Shown: piece by piece, positions 1-46,791 of the stretch
Numbering within the stretch: the first letter of the stretch is position 1
Layout of the letters: the number at the start of each line of letters is the position of its first letter
Origin: an uncultured Candidatus Saccharibacteria bacterium
Lineage (GTDB): Bacteria > Patescibacteriota > WWE3 > UBA101185 > UBA10185
Assembly (NCBI GenBank): GCA_964385105.1
Contig: CAYLMU010000002.1
Coordinates: forward strand, 122,583-186,582
Direction: 5' to 3'
DNA: 64,000 nt
Program-made: the position numbers and the translations under genes
The notes under the pieces: model-generated
The model's input: the letters and a program-made list of their open reading frames with translations, nothing else
What the model was told of the DNA's origin: nothing
The model's database searches: none

Positions 1-278
1 CTCTGCAAGTTCTGACGTAGTGCCAAGCTCAGATATGTTTTATGAGAATGGTTGGGAGCATTCGTATGACATTGGAAATTATCGAATTAGTGGAGTGAGT
101 GCTTCAGGTGTATTGGGTGAAGAATACGCATATTTATTTCTTAATGATAATTTGATTAAAACTGCAATCGTTAAAATGCAAAAGAATTCGATAATAATTG
201 ACGGTACAAATGAACAGTTACAATATGATTGTCCTTGTTCAATCGACTTCGAAGTATTTGAAAGTGACGAAGTGGATA

Positions 279-2246
279 TTAATGACTATCTCGTACAGTA
301 ACGCCAAAATCAGAGCTTAACTTATTTAATAATTTTTCTTTAACAGTTTCTACATTATTTGTAGTAACTTGATTTCCGTCAAATTCTATTCTTACCAGAA
401 CAGCTTTTTTTGAATCCCCGAATTTATTAGTATCAGTAAATTCTTCAAGTACTGCTATGCTTGAAATCGACTTATCAAATTTTTCTATCATAGAATAAAT
501 GGGGCCAAAAGCCGTCTCACTATCTAAAATTAAAGAAACGTCTTCTGCAATTACGTTTGGAATTTGTTGTTTAATATAAGTGATTTCCTTTTTAGACGCC
601 AAAAGATTTACATTATTCAAAATAATATGGTCATTTTTGATTTTTGCAATCTCCAAGTTTTCCTGAAAAACTATTGCTTCCGATTTATCACTTAATTCAT
701 ATTTAACATTTACGATTCCCAAATTTTTAAGCAACCCCGAAAGCAACCCTCTCAAGTATTTATTATTATCCTCAAAGGACTTTTCTATATGTGTGTAAAT
801 AATTACTGTTTCACGCGTCTCGCTGTAATCTGCTATATCACTGCCATCTCCGGCTAGTTTATATGTTTTTCCTATTTCAAAAAGCCCTGCTTCTTTTTTT
901 CTATGCTTTTTGTAAATATCTACTACAGGTTTTAAAGTTTCATACATAGAAATTCTAAGTGCGTTTTTTTCTGATGATAAAGCGTTTTGCAGCATTACAA
1001 GTTCCCGTTCGTTGTCGTTGTAAGCAACGAGAGGGTCAGTAATGTGTTCGTGTAAGCCGATTTTTACCAACTCATCCCGTAATTTTTCTTCAAAGCGCAC
1101 AATTTTGGGAGTTATTTCTTTTGGAGGGGCTGAGTTAATTGGTCTTTGGGGTATTTTGTTATACCCGTGAATTCTTAAAATATCCGCTGCCAAATCATCT
1201 TCAACTTCAATATCAGTTCTAAAATAAGGCACTTTTAATTTCAAAGAGTTTTCGTGTGTGTTTTCTTCAATAGTTGTGTATTCAAGAGCTATAAGTATTT
1301 CTTTAACCTTTTCTATTCCAAATTCCATGCCGCTTATTTGCTTAATTCTATCAAGTCGAAGTGTCATTTCTTTTAAGCCCCACTCTTCAGGATACCAATC
1401 TTCATTTTCGTAATATTCACCGCCGGCCAGCTCTAAAATTAAATGTGTTGCCCGTTCAATGGCTACTTGTGTTAAATGAGGGTGCAAAAATTTATCGTAT
1501 CTTAGAACCGTCTCATTTTGGATTTTTAATCTGCGTGACGTTCTTCGTACATTTGTTTGATTATAATTACCGGCATCCAAAACAATATTTACCGTTTTTT
1601 CGTCTACTGCAGTTTCTTTGCCTCCTACAACGCCACCAATTACGCTTGGTTTACCGGCTTGTGTGAGTACAAAAGTGTTTTCATCAAGTTTTACCGTTTC
1701 GCCAAGTAAAGTTACAATTTCTTCTCCATGCCTTGCTCGCCTAATGACAATTTCTTTTGCTTCCATTTTATCAGTGTCTTGAGCGTGCATAGGTTGGCCG
1801 TATTCAATCATTACATAATTTGTAATATCAACAATGTTGTTTTTTGACGCAATTCCATACGCTTCTAAACGCTTTTTCAGCCATTCAGGAGATTCACCTA
1901 CTTTTACACCTTTAAAAACTCGTGTATTAAAACGGTTTACCAGGTCTTCACACTGAACTTCTATTTTGATTTTGGATTCTTCTGTCGGTTTATGGCCTTT
2001 TTGTGTGTGACGTGGAGGGTAGTTGATTTCAAGCTGCTCAAACGCTGCCAGGTCTCTTGCACATCCAAGAATAGACAACCAATCAGACCTATCCATTCTG
2101 TGTTCTAAATCAAGAATTGCTTCCTGCTCATCATTCTTTGTGACCTTTTCAAGCATTAATCCAAGCAAAGTAAAAGATTCACCAATTTCACGCGGTGTTT
2201 TTTGTATGTTTACATATTCATTTAGCCATTCTAATGGTATTTTCAT
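279..2246 (-). CDS. pheT: phenylalanine--tRNA ligase beta subunit
   Basis: 655-aa ORF with B5-like middle region and C-terminal FDX-ACB-like domain; immediately downstream of pheS in the conserved operon order. Confidence 0.85.
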   Translation of the reverse strand: MKIPLEWLNEYVNIQKTPREIGESFTLLGLMLEKVTKNDEQEAILDLEHRMDRSDWLSILGCARDLAAFEQLEINYPPRHTQKGHKPTEESKIKIEVQCEDLVNRFNTRVFKGVKVGESPEWLKKRLEAYGIASKNNIVDITNYVMIEYGQPMHAQDTDKMEAKEIVIRRARHGEEIVTLLGETVKLDENTFVLTQAGKPSVIGGVVGGKETAVDEKTVNIVLDAGNYNQTNVRRTSRRLKIQNETVLRYDKFLHPHLTQVAIERATHLILELAGGEYYENEDWYPEEWGLKEMTLRLDRIKQISGMEFGIEKVKEILIALEYTTIEENTHENSLKLKVPYFRTDIEVEDDLAADILRIHGYNKIPQRPINSAPPKEITPKIVRFEEKLRDELVKIGLHEHITDPLVAYNDNERELVMLQNALSSEKNALRISMYETLKPVVDIYKKHRKKEAGLFEIGKTYKLAGDGSDIADYSETRETVIIYTHIEKSFEDNNKYLRGLLSGLLKNLGIVNVKYELSDKSEAIVFQENLEIAKIKNDHIILNNVNLLASKKEITYIKQQIPNVIAEDVSLILDSETAFGPIYSMIEKFDKSISSIAVLEEFTDTNKFGDSKKAVLVRIEFDGNQVTTNNVETVKEKLLNKLSSDFGVTVRDSH

Positions 2247-2249
2247 ATT

Positions 2250-3254
2250 TTATTCGTAAACTATTCCCCCACCATATAATTTTCTAATATCATCAATATT
2301 ATATTTTTGCATTACTAGCCTGTCTAAGCCAATTCCGAACGCATAACCGGTATAAACATCAGGGTCGATTCCACTCATTTGCAATGTGTTGTAGTGAATC
2401 ATGCCACTACCCAAAACCTCAATCCACCCTCTTTCTTTACAAACCGAACAACCTGTACCATTACAAAATTTGCATTTCATATCAACTCCTAAGCCCGGCG
2501 AAACTTCAGGGTAATACTTGTATCTAAATCTCACTTCTGTATCGTTGCCATATAAAAATTTGTGAAAGTCCTCCAAAACAGACATTAAATTTTGAATTGT
2601 AATGCCTTTATCTACTACGACCCCCTGATATTGATGAAAAAAAGCGGCATTTGTAACACTTGTGGTTTCGTTTCTATAAACCTTACCTGAAACAACAACT
2701 CTTATAGGAGGTGAATATTCTTCAAGTACACGTGCCTCAACAGAAGAAGTATGTGTTCTTAATAAAATATCGTCACTGTACACAAAAAGAGAGTCTTGCA
2801 AGTCGGTTGCGGGGTGGCCCTCGGGTAAATTTAAACGTCTAAAATTGTATTCTGCTGTTTCTATCTCAGGACCTTCTGCAATTGAAAATCCATGATACCT
2901 AAAAAACTCATTCATTTCTCTTATTACTTGCGTTGTAGGATGCAAATAGCCGGTTTTAACAGGTTGTTGTGGGATTGTCGGGTCAATTTGTATGTTTGTA
3001 GCTAAATGCAGGTTATATGCGGTTTTAGTGTCTTCCAAGGCATCTTTTAGTTCATCCTGCAGCTCATTAATTAATGGACCATATATCTTTTTCTCCTCAG
3101 TTGTTAGTTTTGGAATTTCCTTAACAATTTCGGTTACAAGCCCATGTGTTTTTGAAAAATATTTTAAATACAGCTCGTCAAACTGTCCGGTTTTAGTTGT
3201 ATTTTGCAAATCTTTTTCAAATCTGTTTTTAATATCTTTTAGTACTTCGTCCAT
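2250..3254 (-). CDS. pheS: phenylalanine--tRNA ligase alpha subunit
   Basis: 334 aa; class II aaRS core motifs (FRYHGF...EGPE, HPATDLQDS), 4-nt gap to pheT. Confidence 0.85.
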   Translation of the reverse strand: MDEVLKDIKNRFEKDLQNTTKTGQFDELYLKYFSKTHGLVTEIVKEIPKLTTEEKKIYGPLINELQDELKDALEDTKTAYNLHLATNIQIDPTIPQQPVKTGYLHPTTQVIREMNEFFRYHGFSIAEGPEIETAEYNFRRLNLPEGHPATDLQDSLFVYSDDILLRTHTSSVEARVLEEYSPPIRVVVSGKVYRNETTSVTNAAFFHQYQGVVVDKGITIQNLMSVLEDFHKFLYGNDTEVRFRYKYYPEVSPGLGVDMKCKFCNGTGCSVCKERGWIEVLGSGMIHYNTLQMSGIDPDVYTGYAFGIGLDRLVMQKYNIDDIRKLYGGGIVYE

Positions 3255-3367
3255 TATCCTTTAGTTTAACAGGAAATTAGTTAAATTTTAATAATTTGGT
3301 ATATGATATGGTAAAGTAGCTGTTTATTAAACTCTTTTAATGAAGGGTATATTGTGTTTTTCTACTT

Positions 3368-3730
3368 TTATTTTTTGGATGATTTCTCTTTTACAGCCTC
3401 GACAATCTGTTTAAAGGCTTCAGTGTCATGAATTGCAATTTCTGACAACATTTTTCTATTTAGCTCTATATTTGAATCTTTCAATCCTTTAATAAATCGG
3501 CTGTAATTTATATCAAATGGAGTTAATGCTGCAGAAATTCTAATAATCCAAAGTTTTCTAATATCTCTTTTTCTTCTTTTCCTACCTGCAAATTGATGCT
3601 CGGTAGCTCTCATTGCAGCTTCTTTAGCTCTTCTAAGCAGTTTGCTTCTGCTTAATCTATAGCCTTTTGTTTGTGTTAATATTTTATTTCTTCTTTGTGT
3701 GCCTCTTGGGCCTCTTTTTACTCTTGTCAT
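3368..3730 (-). CDS. rplT: 50S ribosomal protein L20
   Basis: 120 aa, N-terminus MTRVKRG...RRNKIL..TKGYR typical of L20; position in infC-rpmI-rplT operon. Confidence 0.9.
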   Translation of the reverse strand: MTRVKRGPRGTQRRNKILTQTKGYRLSRSKLLRRAKEAAMRATEHQFAGRKRRKRDIRKLWIIRISAALTPFDINYSRFIKGLKDSNIELNRKMLSEIAIHDTEAFKQIVEAVKEKSSKK

Positions 3731-34510: not shown

Positions 34511-35091
34511 TTTTCAAGTATATCAGCAATATATAACAAAATCCCTCGTGTAATGTGTTTAACCCTATCTCTAAATCTTGGTGTTCTTAATAAATCAATG
34601 TGGTTATTCCATTTATCAATTGTAACTTCAATTGGATAATATGTTCTATAGTCAAAAATCTTAATTATTGTTAATACGAGTTCCGCAGCAGTAGCATGGC
34701 AGGCAGTTTCATCAGAAACATCAAATTTCTTCCAATAGTTTGGATACAAGTTTGAATTTTTTGTAGGCTCTATCCAGCCCAGTTTAAGCAGTTCATTTTT
34801 CTTATAACTGGATAATTTAAAATCATCCGGATGCTTTTTGGATAACTCACAATGTAAAGTATTTTCTCCATCAGCATAAAACTGAATAAAATAATTGCAC
34901 AAATCTGAGATGTTGCATACAGCAAAATATTCATCATACGTTTCTTCTAAATTGTCTTCAGCCAGAGCTTCCAAATTATAAATTTTGTGGTTGCGTATTG
35001 TTTTTATAGTTTCAGCAAGATGGTAAATGGTATCTGTTGTTTTATATGGTGTAAAGTCCATTTTTTTTGAGTTAATGCTATTATATAACAA
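34507..35091 (-). CDS. hypothetical protein
   Basis: 194-aa ORF co-oriented with 33464-34510. Confidence 0.5.
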   Translation of the reverse strand: MLYNSINSKKMDFTPYKTTDTIYHLAETIKTIRNHKIYNLEALAEDNLEETYDEYFAVCNISDLCNYFIQFYADGENTLHCELSKKHPDDFKLSSYKKNELLKLGWIEPTKNSNLYPNYWKKFDVSDETACHATAAELVLTIIKIFDYRTYYPIEVTIDKWNNHIDLLRTPRFRDRVKHITRGILLYIADILEK

Positions 35092-35102
35092 TAAGATAAA
35101 TT

Positions 35103-35540
35103 ATGACAAAAATAAAGAATATAATATATTGGGCTACTACAGTATTTCTCGCATTAGGTCTTTTTGGTACAGGAATACAACAATTGATGAAAGTTGAAGC
35201 AGAGGGCGCTTTAGGCCCCCCATTTGCTTGGGGTATCGTACAGCTGGGTTATCCTGTTTATATTTTGACTATTTTGGGAACATGGAAGATTCTCGCTGTA
35301 TTGGCATTACTGTCACCTAAATTCCCTTTAATTAAAGAATGGGCATACGCAGGAATATTCTTTTTATTAACCGGAGCATTGGCTTCTCACTATTTTTCAG
35401 GTCATCCGTGGTATGAATTTATTCCCGCAGTTATTCTTTTGATTTTTTCAATGATATCTTGGTATTTTAGGCCTGATGATAGACGGGTTGACAAAAAAAG
35501 CGTTGAGAATAACGTTACTGTGAGTCAAAAAACATCTTGA
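35103..35540 (+). CDS. DoxX-like membrane protein
   Basis: 145 aa, 4 TM. Confidence 0.45.
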   Translation: MTKIKNIIYWATTVFLALGLFGTGIQQLMKVEAEGALGPPFAWGIVQLGYPVYILTILGTWKILAVLALLSPKFPLIKEWAYAGIFFLLTGALASHYFSGHPWYEFIPAVILLIFSMISWYFRPDDRRVDKKSVENNVTVSQKTS

Positions 35541-35591
35541 AAAAAAGAAATAAAATAGAAATCGTTCTAATTGCAGCCATATAACAAAATT

Positions 35592-35882
35592 ATGTGATTG
35601 GCAGTAAAGGTGATTTGCCCTGGGGTAAAATACTCACTGATTTAAATCATTTTAAGGTTATGACTAGTTGGTTTTCCTAACCCGTAAATCTCAGCGACAG
35701 AATTTACATTGTTTTATCTCAAAGTCTTCAAACTACGTCTGAAGTTGTTGTTGTAGAATCATATGATAAAGCTCTTATATATTGCCATGAAATAAATGCA
35801 GAAAGAGTTTTTGTTATTGGTGGCTCAAGTGTGTATAAACTGGAACATGCGCTACTTTTAAAAAAAAGCAAAAATATATCAA
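35592..35882 (+). pseudogene. folA: dihydrofolate reductase remnant (in-frame stop, internal deletion, truncated ends)
   Basis: reads VIGSKGDLPWGKILTDLNHFKVMTSWFS*PVNLSDRIYIVLSQS...ERVFVIGGSSVYKLE: DHFR LPW and VFVIGG blocks, stop at 35676-35678, missing the segment between them; absent from ORF track. Confidence 0.6.
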
Positions 35883-35901
35883 AAAAACCGTGAGACCATG
35901 G

Positions 35902-38900
35902 TTAATAAATTAAAGAAACTGTTGGAAACTCAAATTCTTTTGCAATCTCAACAAAAAAATCCGATTTAACTTTTAATTTTTTTGTTTTATCTAAATCACT
36001 TAAATATCCCTTATATGCAATGTTAAGAGCAGCCTGAACATCGGCATCACTAATGTTTTGACAGTCTATGAAGGGGCATATAAATAAGGCACTATTACCA
36101 CGATTTTCGTAAAATGTTTCAAAATTCAAATTATTAATTTTTAGATATTCCGCATCTTTGGGTGGACGCATAAATTCATATACGCATGTCTTCAATTTTG
36201 ATCCCGGTATATTTGGACCTATAATATCTTTGGAAAAAAACAGTAATTTCTGACCGTTTATATCTGCCTTATAAATATTAGAAGAATCAACATATTTAGA
36301 TGTTTTATATTCTCTTGATGTATCAATATACTTTAAGGGTGAACGTCTGCATTTAGAGCATGTTTGACTTGTTCCATATGCACTTATGTGATTTCCAACT
36401 AATTGGTTTTTGCCCCAGACTTTTTCGCGCTCAGATTTATCAGCATCATTTCTGCCAATGACATCAGTTTTTTTGATTGAGTGATAAATTTTTGCTACTC
36501 TATTACCTGCAGTCTCAAAGGCCGATATCTCATGCTCGTATATTGGTTTTGCATCATATTTCAAAACTAAATCATGAATACGATTTCTTATACCATTTTG
36601 TGCAGATTTTCTTATTCTGCTTAATGCTGAATTAGGAACTGTGAATGTTCCGGTTATTTGCTGATTTTTTATGATATCAATATGATCTCTTATTTTTCTA
36701 ATTTCAGCACTGTAAATAAAACCAGTGTCTACTGTAGTTAAAGCACCTTCAGCAGATAATACATAATATGCCACACCATATTCACCTATATCAAGTCCTA
36801 AATATTTTTTTGCTATTTCAATATTTTTATTAATTTGCGGTTTCTCATTTGGGTTAATATTAAATGGTTGATTAAAATATATCGATTGACTTATCTCAAT
36901 TAGCTCAATTTTACCAGTAAGAAAGTTACAATCAGCATTGTATGTTATTTCTTTAACAATTTGAGGTTCGTCTCTTGTTATATGAACCTTACCCTTTCTT
37001 TTTTGGTCACTCATGAACCATTCAAGGAATTGTCGCTGGTACCTTGAAGTTTTTATTTGGAAAAGATTTATTAACTGTGAATTCTCATCTATTTTGAATT
37101 TATTTGGACTCTTATCAACAGTCTTTTTTACGTTGTATATTTCAAGTTCTGTGAATTGGTTTTTCGTGTTTAGATTGGGAAAACCAACAAAGAAAGCATA
37201 TTTGGTCTCATCTTTGTTTGAAGAGTAATATATGGGGAATTTCTTTTCAGAATTCATTACCTGTGCAACTTCTCGAATATTAAATGTTTTCCTACTAGTC
37301 TGGTTAAAAATACCTCTAACTTCAGAAAATAGAATTGAATTTAATATATAAAAGACTGCATTCTTATCTAATTTGCCGTTTGTTAGAAAAAGAATATTTT
37401 TTAAATGATCAAAATATTTATGAGTAATATTCAATTCAATAAAGTCAAAATTATGTAAGTGCACAAACCATGATGTGGTAAGTTTTTTCATTTCGATATA
37501 ATCAATTCGCTGCGCTGAGTTTAAGTTTTTCCAATCTTTAGTATCATCTAACTCATTGTATAGTTTTTCTAGTTCTGTGTTGAAGTCGCTAATAACCATT
37601 AATATATTTAATATTTTTCTATTTTCTCTTTTTGAATATTTTGATTTATATATTATTTCATATTTTTTGTTCGGAATTTTACCGCAGTATCTTACAAGAA
37701 TTTTCTCCACTTTGTTTTTATACATATTTGTATTAAGTTTATTGTGTAACCTTGAAAGTTTTTCTAATTGGTATATGAAGTAATCACTTTCAACTAATTC
37801 CATTTTTTGTGATGTGTTCATGATTTCGTTTTTTATTATCTCTACAATCTTAAAAGCTTCATCACATCTAATTGCAAAGTTGATATACTTTGAGTTTAAT
37901 TCTTTTTTTGATTCACCATAAAACTTTGGCAAGTATTGGACTTTTTTAAATAGGTTTGGCAAGATCTTATCAATGGTTATCTCTGTTAACACTATTTGTA
38001 AGTGCTCATCTTGATTAATTTTTTCTGTATTATCTTTTTTGTTACCTTTATTCTTTTTTCCTATTTCTTTAGCAAGATTATACTTTTTATTATAGAAAAG
38101 TTTGCCCGACTGGAAATGTCTATTAGTTAATGATTTGATGTTTCCCAGTAATTCAACATAGGTGTTAAATACATCTATGTTAGTTGTATTTTCCGCGGCT
38201 TCTAGTGCAATTAATATTAAAGACTCTAAATCCTTTAAATCACTTTTTTGTACTTCCTCTAGTAGCTCCTGCAATTCGCTTTTTTGTTTAATTATTTGTT
38301 CATGAGATTTAGCTAAGTAATTATTGTAGTTTGAATACCAAGATTTCAGTTTACCCGAGAAAACACTTCTATATTCAGCCCATGTAGTTGCTAACATTGG
38401 TTGTGGCAGTAATTTGGCTCTATTAGATAGAAAGTCCAATCTCTTTTGTAATTCAGCTTCATTACCGACCCATAAGTTTCCAGTAGATAACATTTCATCA
38501 AAGTACTTTTGAGTGTTGCTATTTCTTAAATCATTAATTACTGCGTTAAAGTAGTTTGATAATGCATTTCCATTACTACCGATTCCCAGAAGGTTTTCTG
38601 TATCGTTATTTAAAGCAGTTATCCTACTAATGGCATCAAGTGGCGTCAGCCCTTCAACTAAATTCAAAGAAGGATATATATAAAAAGTAGTACTATATGA
38701 TATATTTTCCGAGTTTATTTCTGTATAGCCAAATGCTTTAGCCAAAATTTCATTCTGTTCTATTTTAGATTTACCAATTATTGAATGTGCTGTATTTTCA
38801 ATTATATTAGTAATCTCTTTGTCATTTTTAAAATCGTCTTTAACAAATTCAAGTAATTGTTTTTTTATTGATTTAGGTGTGCTTGTAGTTTTAAATACAC

Positions 38901-39303
38901 TCTTTAGAAACACTTTTTTAATAAAGCTTACTTCTATTAACTTATTGCGCAAGTCTTCCGGAATTGTGTTAAATGACAGAACATAGGGGTTTGGAATGTT
39001 AGATAAGTCATGTATTAGAGCAAACATTTCCGCAGTGCTCTGCTGAAAAATTACACCAGCACGTAAACTGTCAAGCCAAAAATCTAATAATGAGTAAACT
39101 TTTTGATGTGATAAGTATTGATCTATATTACCTATGCCATCTAAATAAATTGAATCGTGATGAATAGCACCTGATAATGAATTGAAAAGTTCTTGATCTT
39201 GTGTTCTAAGTGGGTATTTTATAGTTCTCTTTATCTTACCACCGACATATTCTGCTCTTTTTGCATGTAGTGTGTATCCTGTTTTACCTAAATATTTTTT
39301 CAT
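35902..39303 (-). CDS. type V CRISPR effector, Cas12 family (Cas12d/CasY-like), 1133 aa
   Basis: RuvC-I KYLGLDIGEYGVAYYVL, RuvC-II PIYEHEISAFETAGNR, zinc ribbon TCSKC...CPFIDC, RuvC-III NISDADVQAALNIAYKGY; N-terminal 800 aa without recognisable domains; abuts the CRISPR array; cas1 lies on the array's other side. Confidence 0.8.
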   Translation of the reverse strand: MKKYLGKTGYTLHAKRAEYVGGKIKRTIKYPLRTQDQELFNSLSGAIHHDSIYLDGIGNIDQYLSHQKVYSLLDFWLDSLRAGVIFQQSTAEMFALIHDLSNIPNPYVLSFNTIPEDLRNKLIEVSFIKKVFLKSVFKTTSTPKSIKKQLLEFVKDDFKNDKEITNIIENTAHSIIGKSKIEQNEILAKAFGYTEINSENISYSTTFYIYPSLNLVEGLTPLDAISRITALNNDTENLLGIGSNGNALSNYFNAVINDLRNSNTQKYFDEMLSTGNLWVGNEAELQKRLDFLSNRAKLLPQPMLATTWAEYRSVFSGKLKSWYSNYNNYLAKSHEQIIKQKSELQELLEEVQKSDLKDLESLILIALEAAENTTNIDVFNTYVELLGNIKSLTNRHFQSGKLFYNKKYNLAKEIGKKNKGNKKDNTEKINQDEHLQIVLTEITIDKILPNLFKKVQYLPKFYGESKKELNSKYINFAIRCDEAFKIVEIIKNEIMNTSQKMELVESDYFIYQLEKLSRLHNKLNTNMYKNKVEKILVRYCGKIPNKKYEIIYKSKYSKRENRKILNILMVISDFNTELEKLYNELDDTKDWKNLNSAQRIDYIEMKKLTTSWFVHLHNFDFIELNITHKYFDHLKNILFLTNGKLDKNAVFYILNSILFSEVRGIFNQTSRKTFNIREVAQVMNSEKKFPIYYSSNKDETKYAFFVGFPNLNTKNQFTELEIYNVKKTVDKSPNKFKIDENSQLINLFQIKTSRYQRQFLEWFMSDQKRKGKVHITRDEPQIVKEITYNADCNFLTGKIELIEISQSIYFNQPFNINPNEKPQINKNIEIAKKYLGLDIGEYGVAYYVLSAEGALTTVDTGFIYSAEIRKIRDHIDIIKNQQITGTFTVPNSALSRIRKSAQNGIRNRIHDLVLKYDAKPIYEHEISAFETAGNRVAKIYHSIKKTDVIGRNDADKSEREKVWGKNQLVGNHISAYGTSQTCSKCRRSPLKYIDTSREYKTSKYVDSSNIYKADINGQKLLFFSKDIIGPNIPGSKLKTCVYEFMRPPKDAEYLKINNLNFETFYENRGNSALFICPFIDCQNISDADVQAALNIAYKGYLSDLDKTKKLKVKSDFFVEIAKEFEFPTVSLIY

Positions 39304-39399
39304 TTATTTTAAAAAGCATATTCGAGAAGGAAGAAGGCATTCTAATAGCACAGGCTATTAGGGACTCCCTTTAATAATCGGTATTTGAAGGGTTTACTC

Positions 39400-40040
39400 T
39401 GTTTAATTTCACTTTTCCCCTACAATTCGGGGCTTGATAAATGCCTCTTTGCCTTTAATCCCCTACAATTCGGGGACTTACATGTTCATCATATGCCTTT
39501 AATCCCCTACAATTCGGGGTGAGACTTGTATCATACTGCCTTTAATCCCCTACAATTCGGGGTACCTCTTTTTGACCCATGCCTTTAATCCCCTACAATT
39601 CGGGGTTGCCCTTGTCAGACGGTAGCCTTTAATCCCCTACAATTCGGGGTATCAGGGTTTGGCTTGTAGCCTTTAATCCCCTACAATTCGGGGAAAATGG
39701 ATAAGGATATAGCCTTTAATCCCCTACAATTCGGGGAGACTTTAGACAGTGCTGAGCCTTTAATCCCCTACAATTCGGGGTGTAGCTCCACAGGGTATTG
39801 CCTTTAATCCCCTACAATTCGGGGTATGGAAAACATGGTCATGCCTTTAATCCCCTACAATTCGGGGAAATCCTACGTTGTTTGACGCCTTTAATCCCCT
39901 ACAATTCGGGGCTAGGGTTAGTTCAGTTTGCCTTTAATCCCCTACAATTCGGGGCACAGTTACCGAGAGTAAGCCTTTAATCCCCTACAATTCGGGGTAA
40001 TGGGTGTTCGTTTTGGCCTTTAATCCCCTACAATTCGGGG
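39400..40040. CRISPR. CRISPR array: 14 identical 25-nt repeats (GCCTTTAATCCCCTACAATTCGGGG) plus a degenerate repeat, 18-19-nt spacers
   Basis: repeats start at 39451, 39495, 39538, 39581, 39625, 39669, 39712, 39756, 39800, 39843, 39887, 39930, 39973 and 40016; degenerate copy with a 9-nt insertion at about 39400-39432; all spacers unique; repeat has CCCC/GGGG hairpin at its 3' end; AT-rich flank 40041-40143. Confidence 0.95.
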
Positions 40041-40143
40041 AGTTTACCCGATATATGCTTTATTTAAAGTACAAATTAATATAATATATATATAAATTAA
40101 CCTCATTAATTGGTTAATTACGCGTGATTATAGCATATTTCTT

Positions 40144-41121
40144 ATGCAGATACCTAAAGATCCTGCTTGGATACCATATTTACAGACAGCAACACTAATA
40201 GGAAACGACAAAGTTAATATTAAATACAATGACGGTGAAACTATAATTCATCCATCTAGTACATTGTCTCTTTTAATTTATGGAGATTGCAATGATTTGC
40301 CAATAGAAGTAATTGAAGAATTTGGTAGATATGGTGTTCCTATTATCTTTCATAAAAGAAATATCTCAAAAAATATATGGATAAGTAATGGTCCTCGGGC
40401 TGATAAAAACGACACACTAACTAAGCAAATATTACTTAGGAATGACTTGAGAAGAAAAACATATATATCAAGAGTACTGATTTATAATAAATTTAAATAT
40501 TTTGATGAGTTATTTAATATAAGTATACCTAAGTTAAGTGGAATGACAGTAAGCCAAATAAGAATCACAGAGGCTAAGGTTTCTAGAGTTTATTGGAGAA
40601 GTTATTATAATGGACTTGAACAACCTTCTTGGACTAGAAGGTCAAATAATCCCGTTTCTTTTGCTTTGGATGCATGTTCAAAATTTATTGCAGGGATAAT
40701 TCTAAGATGGATAAGCTATCACCACATGTCACCATATCACGGATTCTTACATATACCTACTGATTATCCAAGTTTAGTATATGATCTTATGGAACCGTAT
40801 AGATACATTAGTGATCTGGCTGTAGCAAAAGCTTATATTGAAAGCAAAACTCAAGACAAAGAAAAGCTTACGGCAATGTCAATTTCTAATTTAAAAGACG
40901 AATTAAATAAAGAAATATATTGTATTCAAACAAGACAATTGCTTAGAAGACAGCAGCTATTGCATGGCATATGTTTAAGTCTACGGGCATACTTATTAGG
41001 TGAAGGTAAAAGATTTATTGTTCCAACAGAAGGTGAAACAAGAAAGGGTAGACGAATTAAAACTAACTTTGTAATCCCAGGCAAGAGTGCAGGTTACACT
41101 AAATTAGTTTTAGGCAGCTGA
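40144..41121 (+). CDS. cas1: CRISPR-associated endonuclease Cas1
   Basis: 325 aa; HGFLH and SLVYDLMEPYRYI blocks; adjacent to the array. Confidence 0.8.
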   Translation: MQIPKDPAWIPYLQTATLIGNDKVNIKYNDGETIIHPSSTLSLLIYGDCNDLPIEVIEEFGRYGVPIIFHKRNISKNIWISNGPRADKNDTLTKQILLRNDLRRKTYISRVLIYNKFKYFDELFNISIPKLSGMTVSQIRITEAKVSRVYWRSYYNGLEQPSWTRRSNNPVSFALDACSKFIAGIILRWISYHHMSPYHGFLHIPTDYPSLVYDLMEPYRYISDLAVAKAYIESKTQDKEKLTAMSISNLKDELNKEIYCIQTRQLLRRQQLLHGICLSLRAYLLGEGKRFIVPTEGETRKGRRIKTNFVIPGKSAGYTKLVLGS

Positions 41122-41221
41122 AATTTTATATAGAATCTGTTGTTTGTACCCAATAGCTTATTAATAGGTTTGATTATAACTTAGGGAATGAAGTTATTAT
41201 ATGTCGATACCATGCCCATTC

Positions 41222-41299
41222 TGGTCGGGGTGGCAGGACTCGAACCTGCGGCCTCACGGTCCCAAACCGCGCACTCTAGCCAACTGAGCTACACCCCGC
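41222..41299 (-). tRNA. tRNA-Pro (anticodon TGG)
   Basis: reverse complement GCGGGGTGTAGCTCAGTTGGCTAGAGTGCGCGGTTTGGGACCGTGAGG..GGTTCGAGTCCTGCCACCCCGACCA. Confidence 0.8.
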
Positions 41300-41421
41300 A
41301 AAAAGTTCAATGAAAATTAAAAATACAGTTTCACTACACCATTTACACTAGAAACAATCGCTATTGTATCATAATTTCGCATTGTAATTAGGTATCTTAA
41401 TTAAAAAGTAACTACAGGGAT

Positions 41422-42672
41422 TTATTCACTACGCTCTATTGCATAAATCACACCTGCTCTATCATCAGTCACCAAAAGCGTATTACCGTCAATAAATTTT
41501 ACGTCAACAGGTCTTCCCCATGCTTCCCCGTTGTTTTGCAGCCACCCTGTTGCAAAATCTCCAACTACTTTAGGCTCTGTGCTTATGTCAACTAAAACCA
41601 GCTTATAACCTGTTGGAACAGTTCTATTCCATGATCCATGATAAGCAATTAAAACATGTTCTCCGGTAGTCCAATCTGAACCTAATGGTAAAGGGGTAAT
41701 TCCTAGTGGAGCTGAATGTGCTGTCATCTCAACCACCGGAAATGCGGTTTCGTTTTCACAAAAACTCACATGGTCTGGATATTCAGGGCTTACAACACCT
41801 TGACCATGACAATATGGCCATCCGTAATGTTTACCCTTTTCTATTAAGTTAAGCTCCTCTGGAGGAATATTGTCGCCAATTAGGTCGCGTCCGTTATCAA
41901 CGCCCCATAATTTGTCAGATATAAAGGTAAAACCAACAGTATTTCGCAATCCTCGTGCAAATATTTCTTCACCGGAGCCGTCTAGATTATAAGTAACAAT
42001 TGCGGCACGTCTTTCATCGGTTTCATCACAAACATTGCAGCTTGAACCTACCGAAACATACAATTTATTGTCAGAGCCAACCTTTACAGTTCGTGTATTA
42101 TGCCCCGCGCCACTTGGCAAACCGGCAACAAGTACTTCTTTACTGTCATATTGCCCGTCTGCGCGTATGTTGTTATAAACCAAAATCTGATGTTCCTCAC
42201 CTACATATAAATTATTGTTATACCAGTCGATGCCATGAATGTTACGTAAGCCGGTATCAATAACTATTTCTTCATCAGCAACATTGTCTTTGTCGTTGTC
42301 AACAAAAAGTAAAACCTCACCTGTACCTTTGTCGGTTACATAAATATTTCCCGCATCATCGGTATCAAGAGATCTTGGAGCATTCATTCCTGCTGCAAAT
42401 ATATTTATTTTAAATCCCTCCGGAAGATTTACCGTGCGTGGTGTATTAAATGTGTTATTTTGATATTTTTCAGTAACTTCAATTTGTACCGGATGTAACG
42501 TCGTTAAATCTACAACACTAGAATCACTTTCATCCGACCCGAATTTGGGTACTATGCTTCCTTCTCTTACAAACGGAGATCGTGTTGTGTTATTTTGATT
42601 GAGCAGATAAAAATACCACGCTAAAGTTGCTCCACCTGCAAGTAAGATTATTAATAAAATTTTTTTAATCAT
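41422..42672 (-). CDS. PQQ-dependent soluble sugar (glucose/sorbosone) dehydrogenase-like beta-propeller protein
   Basis: signal/TM; motifs ARGLRNTVGFTF and HYGWPYCHG. Confidence 0.6.
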   Translation of the reverse strand: MIKKILLIILLAGGATLAWYFYLLNQNNTTRSPFVREGSIVPKFGSDESDSSVVDLTTLHPVQIEVTEKYQNNTFNTPRTVNLPEGFKINIFAAGMNAPRSLDTDDAGNIYVTDKGTGEVLLFVDNDKDNVADEEIVIDTGLRNIHGIDWYNNNLYVGEEHQILVYNNIRADGQYDSKEVLVAGLPSGAGHNTRTVKVGSDNKLYVSVGSSCNVCDETDERRAAIVTYNLDGSGEEIFARGLRNTVGFTFISDKLWGVDNGRDLIGDNIPPEELNLIEKGKHYGWPYCHGQGVVSPEYPDHVSFCENETAFPVVEMTAHSAPLGITPLPLGSDWTTGEHVLIAYHGSWNRTVPTGYKLVLVDISTEPKVVGDFATGWLQNNGEAWGRPVDVKFIDGNTLLVTDDRAGVIYAIERSE

Positions 42673-44114: not shown

Positions 44115-44190
44115 GCACCTGTAGCTCAGAGGATAGAGCAGTTCCCTTCTAAGGAAAAGGTCGTAGGTTCGACTCCTACCAGGTGCGCCA
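44115..44190 (+). tRNA. tRNA-Arg (anticodon TCT)
   Basis: GCACCTGTAGCTCAGAGGATAGAGCA..CTTCTAA anticodon loop..GTAGGTTCGACTCCTACCAGGTGCGCCA; 76 nt. Confidence 0.8.
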
Positions 44191-44207
44191 TAAATATTGG
44201 CTACAAG

Positions 44208-44294
44208 GCCCGGGTGGCGGAATGGTATACGCGCCAGACTTAAAATCTGGTGGGAGAATATCCCTTGTGGGTTCGAGTCCCACCCTGGGCACCA
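44208..44294 (+). tRNA. tRNA-Leu (anticodon TAA), long variable arm
   Basis: GCCCGGGTGGCGGAATGGTA..CCAGACTTAAAATCTGG..GTGGGTTCGAGTCCCACCCTGGGCACCA; 87 nt. Confidence 0.8.
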
Positions 44295-46717: not shown

Positions 46718-46791
46718 TGGAGCGGGATACGGGAGTCGAACCCGTTTCTTCACCTTGGAAGGGTGATGTTGAGCCGTTCAACTAATCCCGC
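46718..46791 (-). tRNA. tRNA-Gly (anticodon TCC)
   Basis: reverse complement GCGGGATTAGTTGAACGGCTCAACATCACCCTTCCAAGGTGAAG..GGGTTCGACTCCCGTATCCCGCTCCA. Confidence 0.8.

Follow-up and report, generated by a model that had tools for sequence, protein, structure and literature searches.

A Candidate scoutRNA between the CRISPR Array and the cas12d Gene of a Divergent Type V-D Locus

Results

The Type V-D Locus

The window analyzed here is a stretch of 64,000 nucleotides of bacterial DNA that carries a cas12d (casY) gene, a CRISPR array, and cas1. Between the cas12d start codon and the array lies a stretch of 109 nt (39304–39412), for which an initial annotation had predicted a structured, scout-type accessory RNA of a Cas12c/Cas12d system. 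This prediction was supported: the effector proved to be Cas12d, and the stretch holds an element homologous to the scoutRNA of KbCas12d. The features of the locus are compiled in Table 1.

The 1133-aa open reading frame (ORF) matched the NCBIfam profile NF033951 (Cas12d) with 789 bits (cutoff 250, E = 1e-236) over profile positions 1–1180, and we take ORF 35902–39303 to encode a full-length Cas12d/CasY. It was 32% identical to KbCas12d/CasY.1 over 869 aa. The RuvC motifs LGLDIGEYG (D838), IYE (E923), and SDADVQAA (D1086/D1088) are kept, and D838, E923, and D1086/D1088 were invariant across the family alignment and aligned with the Kb motifs. The profile score and the RuvC residues together characterize a type V-D effector with an intact RuvC. 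Cas12c identity was rejected, the score for NF033950 being 61.5 bits versus a cutoff of 250. Pfam recognized only a C-terminal TNB domain. A sequence search of the PDB with the window Cas12d found no Cas12d structure; the sole relative was Cas12c2 (E = 6e-5), which matched in the C-terminal RuvC region. Among 5.8 billion proteins, the nearest relative showed 34% identity. The sole adaptation gene near the locus is cas1; the neighboring ORFs encode DoxX, chaperone-like, and GSDH-like proteins, not Cas2 or Cas4.

The array comprises 14 spacers, including the one that adjoins the degenerate repeat. Its plus-strand repeat is GCCTTTAATCCCCTACAATTCGGGG; read on the minus strand, as CCCCGAATTGTAGGGGATTAAAGGC, it shows homology to the KbCas12d CRISPR RNA (crRNA) repeat, which was used experimentally as cuccgaaaguaucggggauaaaggc plus spacer (bioRxiv 10.1101/2023.12.12.571249). 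On the minus strand, AAGGC forms the 3' end of all intact repeats (14/14), and the same 3' end was seen, on the cas12d strand, in the main repeat of every related locus with a detected array, where the spacers measure 17–19 nt. Because of the homology to the KbCas12d crRNA repeat and the AAGGC ends in related arrays, the window array is predicted to be transcribed on the minus strand, toward cas12d. The locus conforms to type V-D in its repeats (25–26 nt), its spacers (17–19 nt), and its cas1-only adaptation module; short spacers are typical of this type (bioRxiv 10.1101/2023.12.12.571249). The degenerate repeat at the cas12d-proximal end agrees with the repeat at 19 of 25 positions, including 17/17 over the 5' part of the repeat. 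The AT-rich flank at the other end (40042–40143), which had been named as an alternative source of the accessory RNA, was rejected as scout locus: it contains neither GCCTT nor AAGGC, and so no dock motif, gave no descriptor or covariance-model match, and occupies the position of a leader. Its predicted fold was unremarkable.

Table 1. Features of the cas12d locus in order of window position
Feature	Position	Strand	Basis or remark
cas12d (casY) effector gene, 1133 aa	35902–39303	−	NCBIfam NF033951 equivalog and RuvC motifs
23-nt gap between scout 3' arm and cas12d ATG, CUCGAAUAUGCUUUUUAAAAUAA	39304–39326	−	Sequence
Putative scoutRNA 3' arm, CUUCCUU	39327–39333	−	Pairs with 5' arm; minimum free energy fold, R3 alignment, closing-stem covariation
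Putative dock (anti-repeat), GCCUU	39334–39338	−	Complements AAGGC repeat end; same place in Kb scoutRNA
Linker between hairpin and dock, AAU	39339–39341	−	3-nt format common to L033, L057, and L002
Apical hairpin, CUAAUAGC-CUGU-GCUAUUAG	39342–39361	−	Homologous hairpin covaries across loci
Linker, UCC	39362–39364	−	Family consensus UUCC/UUUC/UCC
Putative scoutRNA 5' arm, AAGGGAG	39365–39371	−	Fold, descriptor, R3 alignment
Repeat-like AUUAAAGG (= CCTTTAAT on minus strand)	39368–39375	−	Same-sense copy of repeat 3' end; overlaps 5' arm
32-nt stretch between degenerate repeat and scout core	39376–39407	−	Sequence
Degenerate terminal (leader-distal) repeat, CCCCGAAUUGUAGGGGAAAAGUGAA	39408–39432	−	Without AAGGC; cas12d-proximal array end
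Array, 14 intact 25-nt repeats, 18–19-nt spacers	39451–40041	−	Minus-strand repeat CCCCGAAUUGUAGGGGAUUAAAGGC
AT-rich array leader	40042–40143	−	Opposite array end from degenerate repeat
cas1	40144–41121	+	Pfam PF01867, E = 2.6e-14; TIGR00287; divergent from array and cas12d

Sequence and Predicted Fold of the Element

The 109-nt stretch is non-coding, as the initial annotation had held: the ORFs that overlap it are merely spurious TTG/GTG frames of 22–45 aa that extend into the cas12d start or the array. Its right edge at 39412 overlaps the degenerate repeat by 5 nt. The perfect 8-bp hairpin reported at 39342–39361 was found as described, with CTAATAGC (39342–39349), an ACAG loop (39350–39353), and GCTATTAG (39354–39361). 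When the region was shuffled 5000 times with dinucleotides preserved, 92 of the shuffles contained a perfect stem of at least 8 bp with a loop of 3–8 nt. The repeat-like CCTTTAAT, which equals positions 2–9 of the plus-strand repeat, likewise stands at 39368–39375 as claimed; its distance from the degenerate repeat had to be corrected from 25 to 32 nt. A same-strand 8-mer of the repeat was present in 186/5000 shuffles. Judged by its orientation, CCTTTAAT is not an anti-repeat; it is read as a same-sense copy of the repeat 3' end that would supply the scout 5' arm.

What had been overlooked is an AAGGC at 39334–39338, which reads GCCUU on the minus strand. By itself this 5-mer is not rare (1186/5000 shuffles). 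Repeat complementarity had not been verifiable beyond 5-nt matches, and the docking element we propose is exactly of this size, namely the 5-nt GCCUU. A long anti-repeat of the kind found in trans-activating crRNA (tracrRNA), of ~10 nt or more, was rejected, because the longest exact antisense match measured 5 nt. Smith-Waterman alignment of the stretch, 39376–39407 included, with the reverse-complemented repeat was no better than with shuffles (p = 0.54).

The predicted accessory RNA is encoded by the minus strand, as are cas12d and the crRNAs. There the region reads ...AUUAAAGGGAG-UCC-(CUAAUAGC CUGU GCUAUUAG)-AAU-GCCUU-CUUCCUU-CUCG..., with the hairpin in parentheses. The scout core runs from 39371 to 39327 and ends 23 nt upstream of the cas12d ATG (39303). 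The minimum free energy fold of 39322–39380 (minus strand) pairs AAGGGAG with CUUCCUU in a closing stem of 7 bp, forms the 8-bp apical hairpin, and leaves AAUGCCUU, which includes GCCUU, unpaired. The fold thus shows the structural features of a scoutRNA: a closing stem, an apical hairpin, and a dock unpaired in the internal loop. Rfam 15, which holds no scoutRNA family, returned only tRNAs and chance matches (E up to 10 on 35000–42000; gathering thresholds on the whole window).

Occurrence of the Element Upstream of cas12d in Homologous Loci

For comparison, 71 loci encoding Cas12d homologs (L001–L071, 606 kb) were fetched. A descriptor consisting of a closing stem of at least 5 bp, a linker, a hairpin of at least 4 bp, GCCTT, a linker of 0–6 nt, and a 3' arm was run on both strands. 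Fifty-four loci include the cas12d 5' end, and hits were counted on the cas12d strand no more than 260 nt upstream of the ATG. By this count, 48 of the 54 loci have the arm-linker-hairpin-GCCTT-arm element ahead of cas12d and in its orientation. Five of the six loci missed by the descriptor carry, by eye, a larger or imperfect element, some with two extra hairpins between dock and 3' arm. In all, the set holds roughly 35 distinct scouts, larger variants included. Background hits occurred at 0.245 per kb per strand at a score of at least 24. The window element scored 35, the top value in 64 kb on either strand, and this score was reached by just 9 background hits in the 1.34 Mb scanned.

Two locus architectures were seen in the set, one with the order leader-array-scout-cas12d, as in the window, and one with the order scout-cas12d-array, in which the array follows ~1.2 kb downstream. 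The element stands immediately 5' of cas12d in both, even when the array is downstream of the gene. The gap between scout and ATG is 23 nt in the KbCas12d locus L035 as well, and 5–110 nt in the other loci.

Covariation of Both Helices

In MAFFT alignments of diverse scouts (A2–A4, A7, and A8), hairpins and linkers of differing length shifted the arms out of register. Covariance models were therefore seeded from small, format-matched sets. Model R1 was built from two Kb-type sequences (Kb and L032), and R2 from four format-matched loci (L033, L057, L002, and L047; alignment A9). Searched against the 606 kb of loci, R2 returned 14 sites, all on the cas12d strand at the expected place, including the Kb scoutRNA (E = 0.027). 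Alignment A10, made from these sites, consists of 12 distinct loci, excludes the window, and was the basis of R3. Alignment A11 holds some false hits and was kept out of the main covariation evidence.

In A10, all 12 modelled pairs change on both sides, and 89% of the cells were paired versus 36–51% when the partner was slid, in an alignment that is model-fitted, which favors the structure. The covariation score was 0.871 versus 0.236 in shuffles, and none of 500 shuffles reached it. For the apical hairpin, 5/5 modelled pairs covary and 96.6% of the cells were paired. Compensatory arms are also visible in the raw sequences, for instance AAAGGGU/ACCCUUU, AACGGU/ACCGUU, GUCGAGA/UCUCGAC, and UUUUAGG/CCUAAAA. 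Because of the slid controls and these visibly compensatory arms, the covariation was judged to be real.

With R3, in the training of which the window had no part, the site 39325–39373 (minus strand) ranked first in the window at 17.2 bits (E = 0.057, by a rough calibration), and the next match followed at 12.3 bits. The R3 alignment of the site contains no non-standard pair. When E is rescaled to the two flanks of the array (~420 nt), it becomes ~2e-4. R2 missed the site with default filters and placed it first, at 14.7 bits, with filters off. In an unfiltered search of 91 kb of other loci, false hits scored up to 14.5 bits and held-out true scouts 13–30 bits. In covariance and fold analysis over homologous loci, which had been suggested as a check on the predicted RNA, both helices thus covary, and the window site ranks first at a modest window-wide E.

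Comparison with Known Accessory RNAs

The published Kb scoutRNA1 has the sequence AAAGGGU-UUCC-(AGUUU UUAACU AAACU)-UUA-GCCUU-CC-ACCCUUU, with the hairpin in parentheses (bioRxiv 10.1101/2023.12.12.571249). It maps to L035:124–167, past the last degenerate repeat and short of the cas12d ATG (L035:191). The preprint places the scout "upstream of the CRISPR array" (bioRxiv 10.1101/2023.12.12.571249); contrary to this wording, in L035:18–191 (CasY.1) it follows the last degenerate repeat in the direction of transcription and stands 23 nt before the ATG. The window element is homologous to this RNA. Both are encoded by the strand that also carries cas12d and the crRNAs, and both are placed after the last repeat and ahead of the cas12d ATG, 23 nt from it in each case. 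Their parts follow in one order, namely 5' arm, UYC(C) linker, hairpin, GCCUU, and 3' arm, and in both the 5-nt GCCUU complements the 3' AAGGC of the repeat. Differences were also evident. The window sequence is highly diverged, so that the model from Kb and L032 is blind to it and the family model gives 17 bits. Its dock joins the 3' arm without a linker, whereas Kb has CC, and its apical hairpin consists of 8 bp with a 4-nt loop instead of 5 bp with a 6-nt loop. Whereas the scout of L032 is fused to the last repeat and that of L035 to a decayed repeat, the window core is 32 nt away from the terminal repeat. Unlike in the published Cas12d scout loci, cas1 is divergent and on the far side of the array.

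As is predicted for the window element, the Cas12c scoutRNA/tracrRNA of type V-C has a dock:anchor pairing of 3–5 nt with the spacer-adjacent end of the repeat and is an accessory RNA needed by a large Cas12 with a cas1-only adaptation module (PMC9522604). The Cas12c2 RNA is longer, however, and forms three repeat:anti-repeat duplexes in the cryo-EM structure (PMC9522604). With canonical tracrRNAs (type II, V-B, V-E, V-F, and others), the element has in common that a trans-acting RNA encoded beside array and effector would pair with the crRNA repeat, but it lacks their extended anti-repeat. The 8-nt same-sense repeat copy just upstream of the effector also resembles standalone repeat-like regulatory elements beside cas genes (PMC10120712). 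In contrast to those elements, the copy in the window is embedded in a covarying two-helix RNA that carries a repeat dock.

Discussion

The element directly upstream of the window cas12d has the position, strand, and predicted fold of the published Cas12d scoutRNA, to which it is homologous, and both of its helices covary across the family. It adjoins cas12d, shares the strand of cas12d and the crRNAs, and contains a GCCUU that is complementary to the repeat over 5 nt. We conclude, with a probability of roughly 85%, that the minus strand at about 39378–39322 encodes the scoutRNA of a type V-D (Cas12d/CasY) system. By analogy with published homologs, this RNA is presumably expressed, its GCCUU would pair with the AAGGC of each crRNA, and it would be required, together with crRNA, for DNA cleavage by Cas12d at this locus, as has been shown for homologs (bioRxiv 10.1101/2023.12.12.571249). 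The proposed mechanism is as follows. Folding of the RNA would produce a closing stem of 7 bp and an apical hairpin of 8 bp and leave GCCUU free in the internal loop. GCCUU could then pair with AAGGC, the last five nucleotides of the repeat, which in the crRNA stand immediately 5' of the spacer. Binding of the scout:crRNA pair would make Cas12d competent for crRNA-guided cleavage of DNA. Position 39432, in the degenerate terminal repeat, and the vicinity of the cas12d ATG are the probable limits of the primary transcript. Because the scout directly follows the last repeat, the anatomy of the locus indicates that it may be made from the array (pre-crRNA) transcript. The 32 nt at 39376–39407 could belong to the primary scout transcript, as its 5' part, or be what is left of a spacer and a repeat that have decayed.

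Several observations weigh against this assignment. The nearest Cas12d is just 34% identical, and conservation of the element is therefore seen family-wide only. The fold z-score of the 59-nt core was just −1.8, and that of all 109 nt was −0.6. When the 109 nt were folded as a whole, the AAGGG of the scout 5' arm was taken up by CCCUU (39392 to 39388) in an alternative hairpin, which would compete with the closing stem. A scan of the stretch detected neither a sigma-70-type promoter nor a terminator for a separate transcript. R1, a model too narrow for this purpose, did not find the window site. The window-wide covariance-model E of ~0.06 is modest, its calibration is rough, and it falls short of strict window-wide thresholds. 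Dock and anchor are both invariant in the family, and pairing of GCCUU with AAGGC is for this reason beyond the reach of a covariation test. Thermodynamic duplex prediction also allowed the scout 3' arm to pair with the GGGG tract of the repeat, which was treated as uninformative without covariation. As a separate observation, a C-rich tract similar to that at 39392–39388 precedes the L047 scout and is not complementary to the L047 scout arm.

The constant place of the element, always directly upstream of cas12d (5–110 nt from the ATG) even with the array downstream, would also be expected if the structure acted mainly in cis, in the 5' untranslated region or as an autoregulatory element of cas12d, that is, as a repeat-like RNA or DNA site through which Cas12d or the crRNA complex controls expression. 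The 5' arm does copy the repeat 3' end in the window, L032, L035, and L001, and repeat-like elements beside effector genes are widespread, with such a regulatory role proposed for the standalone ones next to cas9 and cas12a (PMC10120712). We nevertheless regard this explanation as improbable. The KbCas12d homolog acts in trans: in vitro it is functional when supplied as a molecule of its own, and a single-guide RNA can be made by joining it to the crRNA (bioRxiv 10.1101/2023.12.12.571249). Furthermore, the invariant GCCUU matches the invariant end of the repeat and no promoter sequence, and adjacency to the gene is equally well explained by co-expression. Because the Kb homolog is active in trans, the scout role is considered primary and cis-regulation a possible additional function.

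It is very unlikely that the hairpin serves to end the pre-crRNA transcript ahead of cas12d, as a terminator or a processing signal, and that the repeat-like fragment is a functionless, decayed remnant of the array. The hairpin does stand just past the last degenerate repeat, and a pseudo-repeat at about 39391 to 39367 is roughly in array phase, but no U-run follows the hairpin on either strand, the terminator scan of 39304–39412 was empty, and only 3 of the 8 stem pairs are G-C. The element is also present where no array adjoins. Neutral decay, moreover, would not keep 12/12 compensatory pairs and an invariant GCCUU across effectors that are ~25–35% identical to the window Cas12d. Promoter, terminator, and small-ORF readings of the stretch all went unsupported in scans of 39304–39412. 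A chance hairpin in an AT-rich promoter region would fit the weak single-sequence fold statistics (z = −0.6 to −1.8) and the recurrence of an 8-bp hairpin in ~2% of the shuffles, yet against the family-wide evidence from position, motif, and covariance models we find it scarcely credible.

ScoutRNAs of Cas12c and Cas12d were reportedly described by Harrington et al. in 2020 (Mol Cell 79:416), and the short "dock:anchor" pairing of scoutRNAs is said, in second-hand quotation, to come from the same paper. Since scoutRNAs have been described for Cas12c and Cas12d since 2020, a scoutRNA at this locus is expected and not surprising; it is a new, divergent member of a kind already known. Its assignment adds the missing item to the parts list of this divergent Cas12d system, which now consists of effector, cas1, 14-spacer array, leader, and a scout core of ~45–57 nt. 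Such a list is a requirement for reconstitution of the nuclease or the design of a single-guide RNA. In the comparative set, the scout is almost always located just 5' of cas12d, GCCUU and AAGGC are invariant, and fusion to a repeat or a longer anti-repeat occurs by lineage. These patterns bear on the origin and production of scoutRNAs.

The terminal repeats of several loci are of interest in this respect. At L032:1330–1397, the last repeat is fused directly to the scout and itself supplies the 5' arm. In L035:100–167, L001:5860–5941, and L036:5880–5966, a partly decayed, in-phase terminal repeat with an intact 5' half supplies it. In the window (39432 to 39365, minus strand), AUUAAAGGG comes about one period after the degenerate repeat; the pseudo-repeat at about 39391 to 39367 is in phase within ~2 nt and ends in AUUAAAGGG. 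A derivation of scoutRNAs from a terminal repeat-spacer unit is suggested. A more specific scenario, which we put forward tentatively and with some doubt, is that the scoutRNA is a domesticated last repeat-spacer unit in which the 5' arm stems from the 3' end of the terminal repeat and a fold-back body with free GCCUU replaces the spacer. Transcription of this unit would be joint with that of the pre-crRNA, and the same processing would release it.

Antisense copies of the repeat were a further feature of the comparative set. In many other Cas12d loci, part of the locus's own repeat recurs as a perfect antisense copy of 10–14 nt just 5' of the scout core. The copy is GGGTTCCTAACCC in L013 (5863–5875), L014, L043, L046, L049, L063, L065, and L070, GGGTCCCTAACCC in L003, L009, and L021, GCCTTTATCCCC in L041, where it lies 73 nt upstream of the scout GCCTT, and GCCTTTTCTCCC in L006. 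It changes in step with the repeat, as seen from the variants GGTTAGGAACC, GGTTAGGGAC, and AGTTAGGAACT. In many of those loci the copies reached p ≤ 0.01 versus shuffles; the window has none (p = 0.54, as above). Cas12d scoutRNAs may thus pair with the repeat beyond the 5-nt dock, as in the Cas12c2 structure. If so, the antisense copies would be a second, longer anti-repeat reminiscent of the extra Cas12c2 duplexes.

Larger scouts were found in L013, L014, L019, L025, L043, L046, L063, L065, and L027, ~90–150 nt upstream of cas12d. Their closing stem, GCGCCCUUGCGCU/AGUGCAAGGGCGC, is GC-rich and 13 bp long, and inside it stand the UUCC-hairpin-GCCUU core and, between dock and 3' arm, two extra hairpins. 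By eye, most of them show a −10-like TAnAAT hexamer 6–7 nt upstream of the antisense-repeat hairpin, which suggests a promoter of their own.

Some minor observations concern the loci themselves. The contig that holds the window was also encountered in run SRR9016296. The window CRISPR-cas locus is flanked by tRNA genes at 41225–41298 (minus strand), 44115–44291 (plus strand), and 46721–46791 (minus strand), one of which lies 104 nt past the cas1 stop codon, and the GC content rises from ~0.30 to ~0.41 beyond position 41200. The Cas12d loci L002, L009, L014, L023, L025, and L028 come from metagenome-assembled genomes labelled Leptonemataceae, Gammaproteobacteria, Bdellovibrionales, or Propionibacteriaceae and not Patescibacteria/candidate phyla radiation, which could be due to mis-binning or to genuine spread outside the candidate phyla radiation. 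In the metagenome contig of L035, the CasY.1-type cas12d (L035:191–3569) is broken up into two ORFs that overlap (191..1003 and 966..3569), indicating a frameshift or an assembly error.

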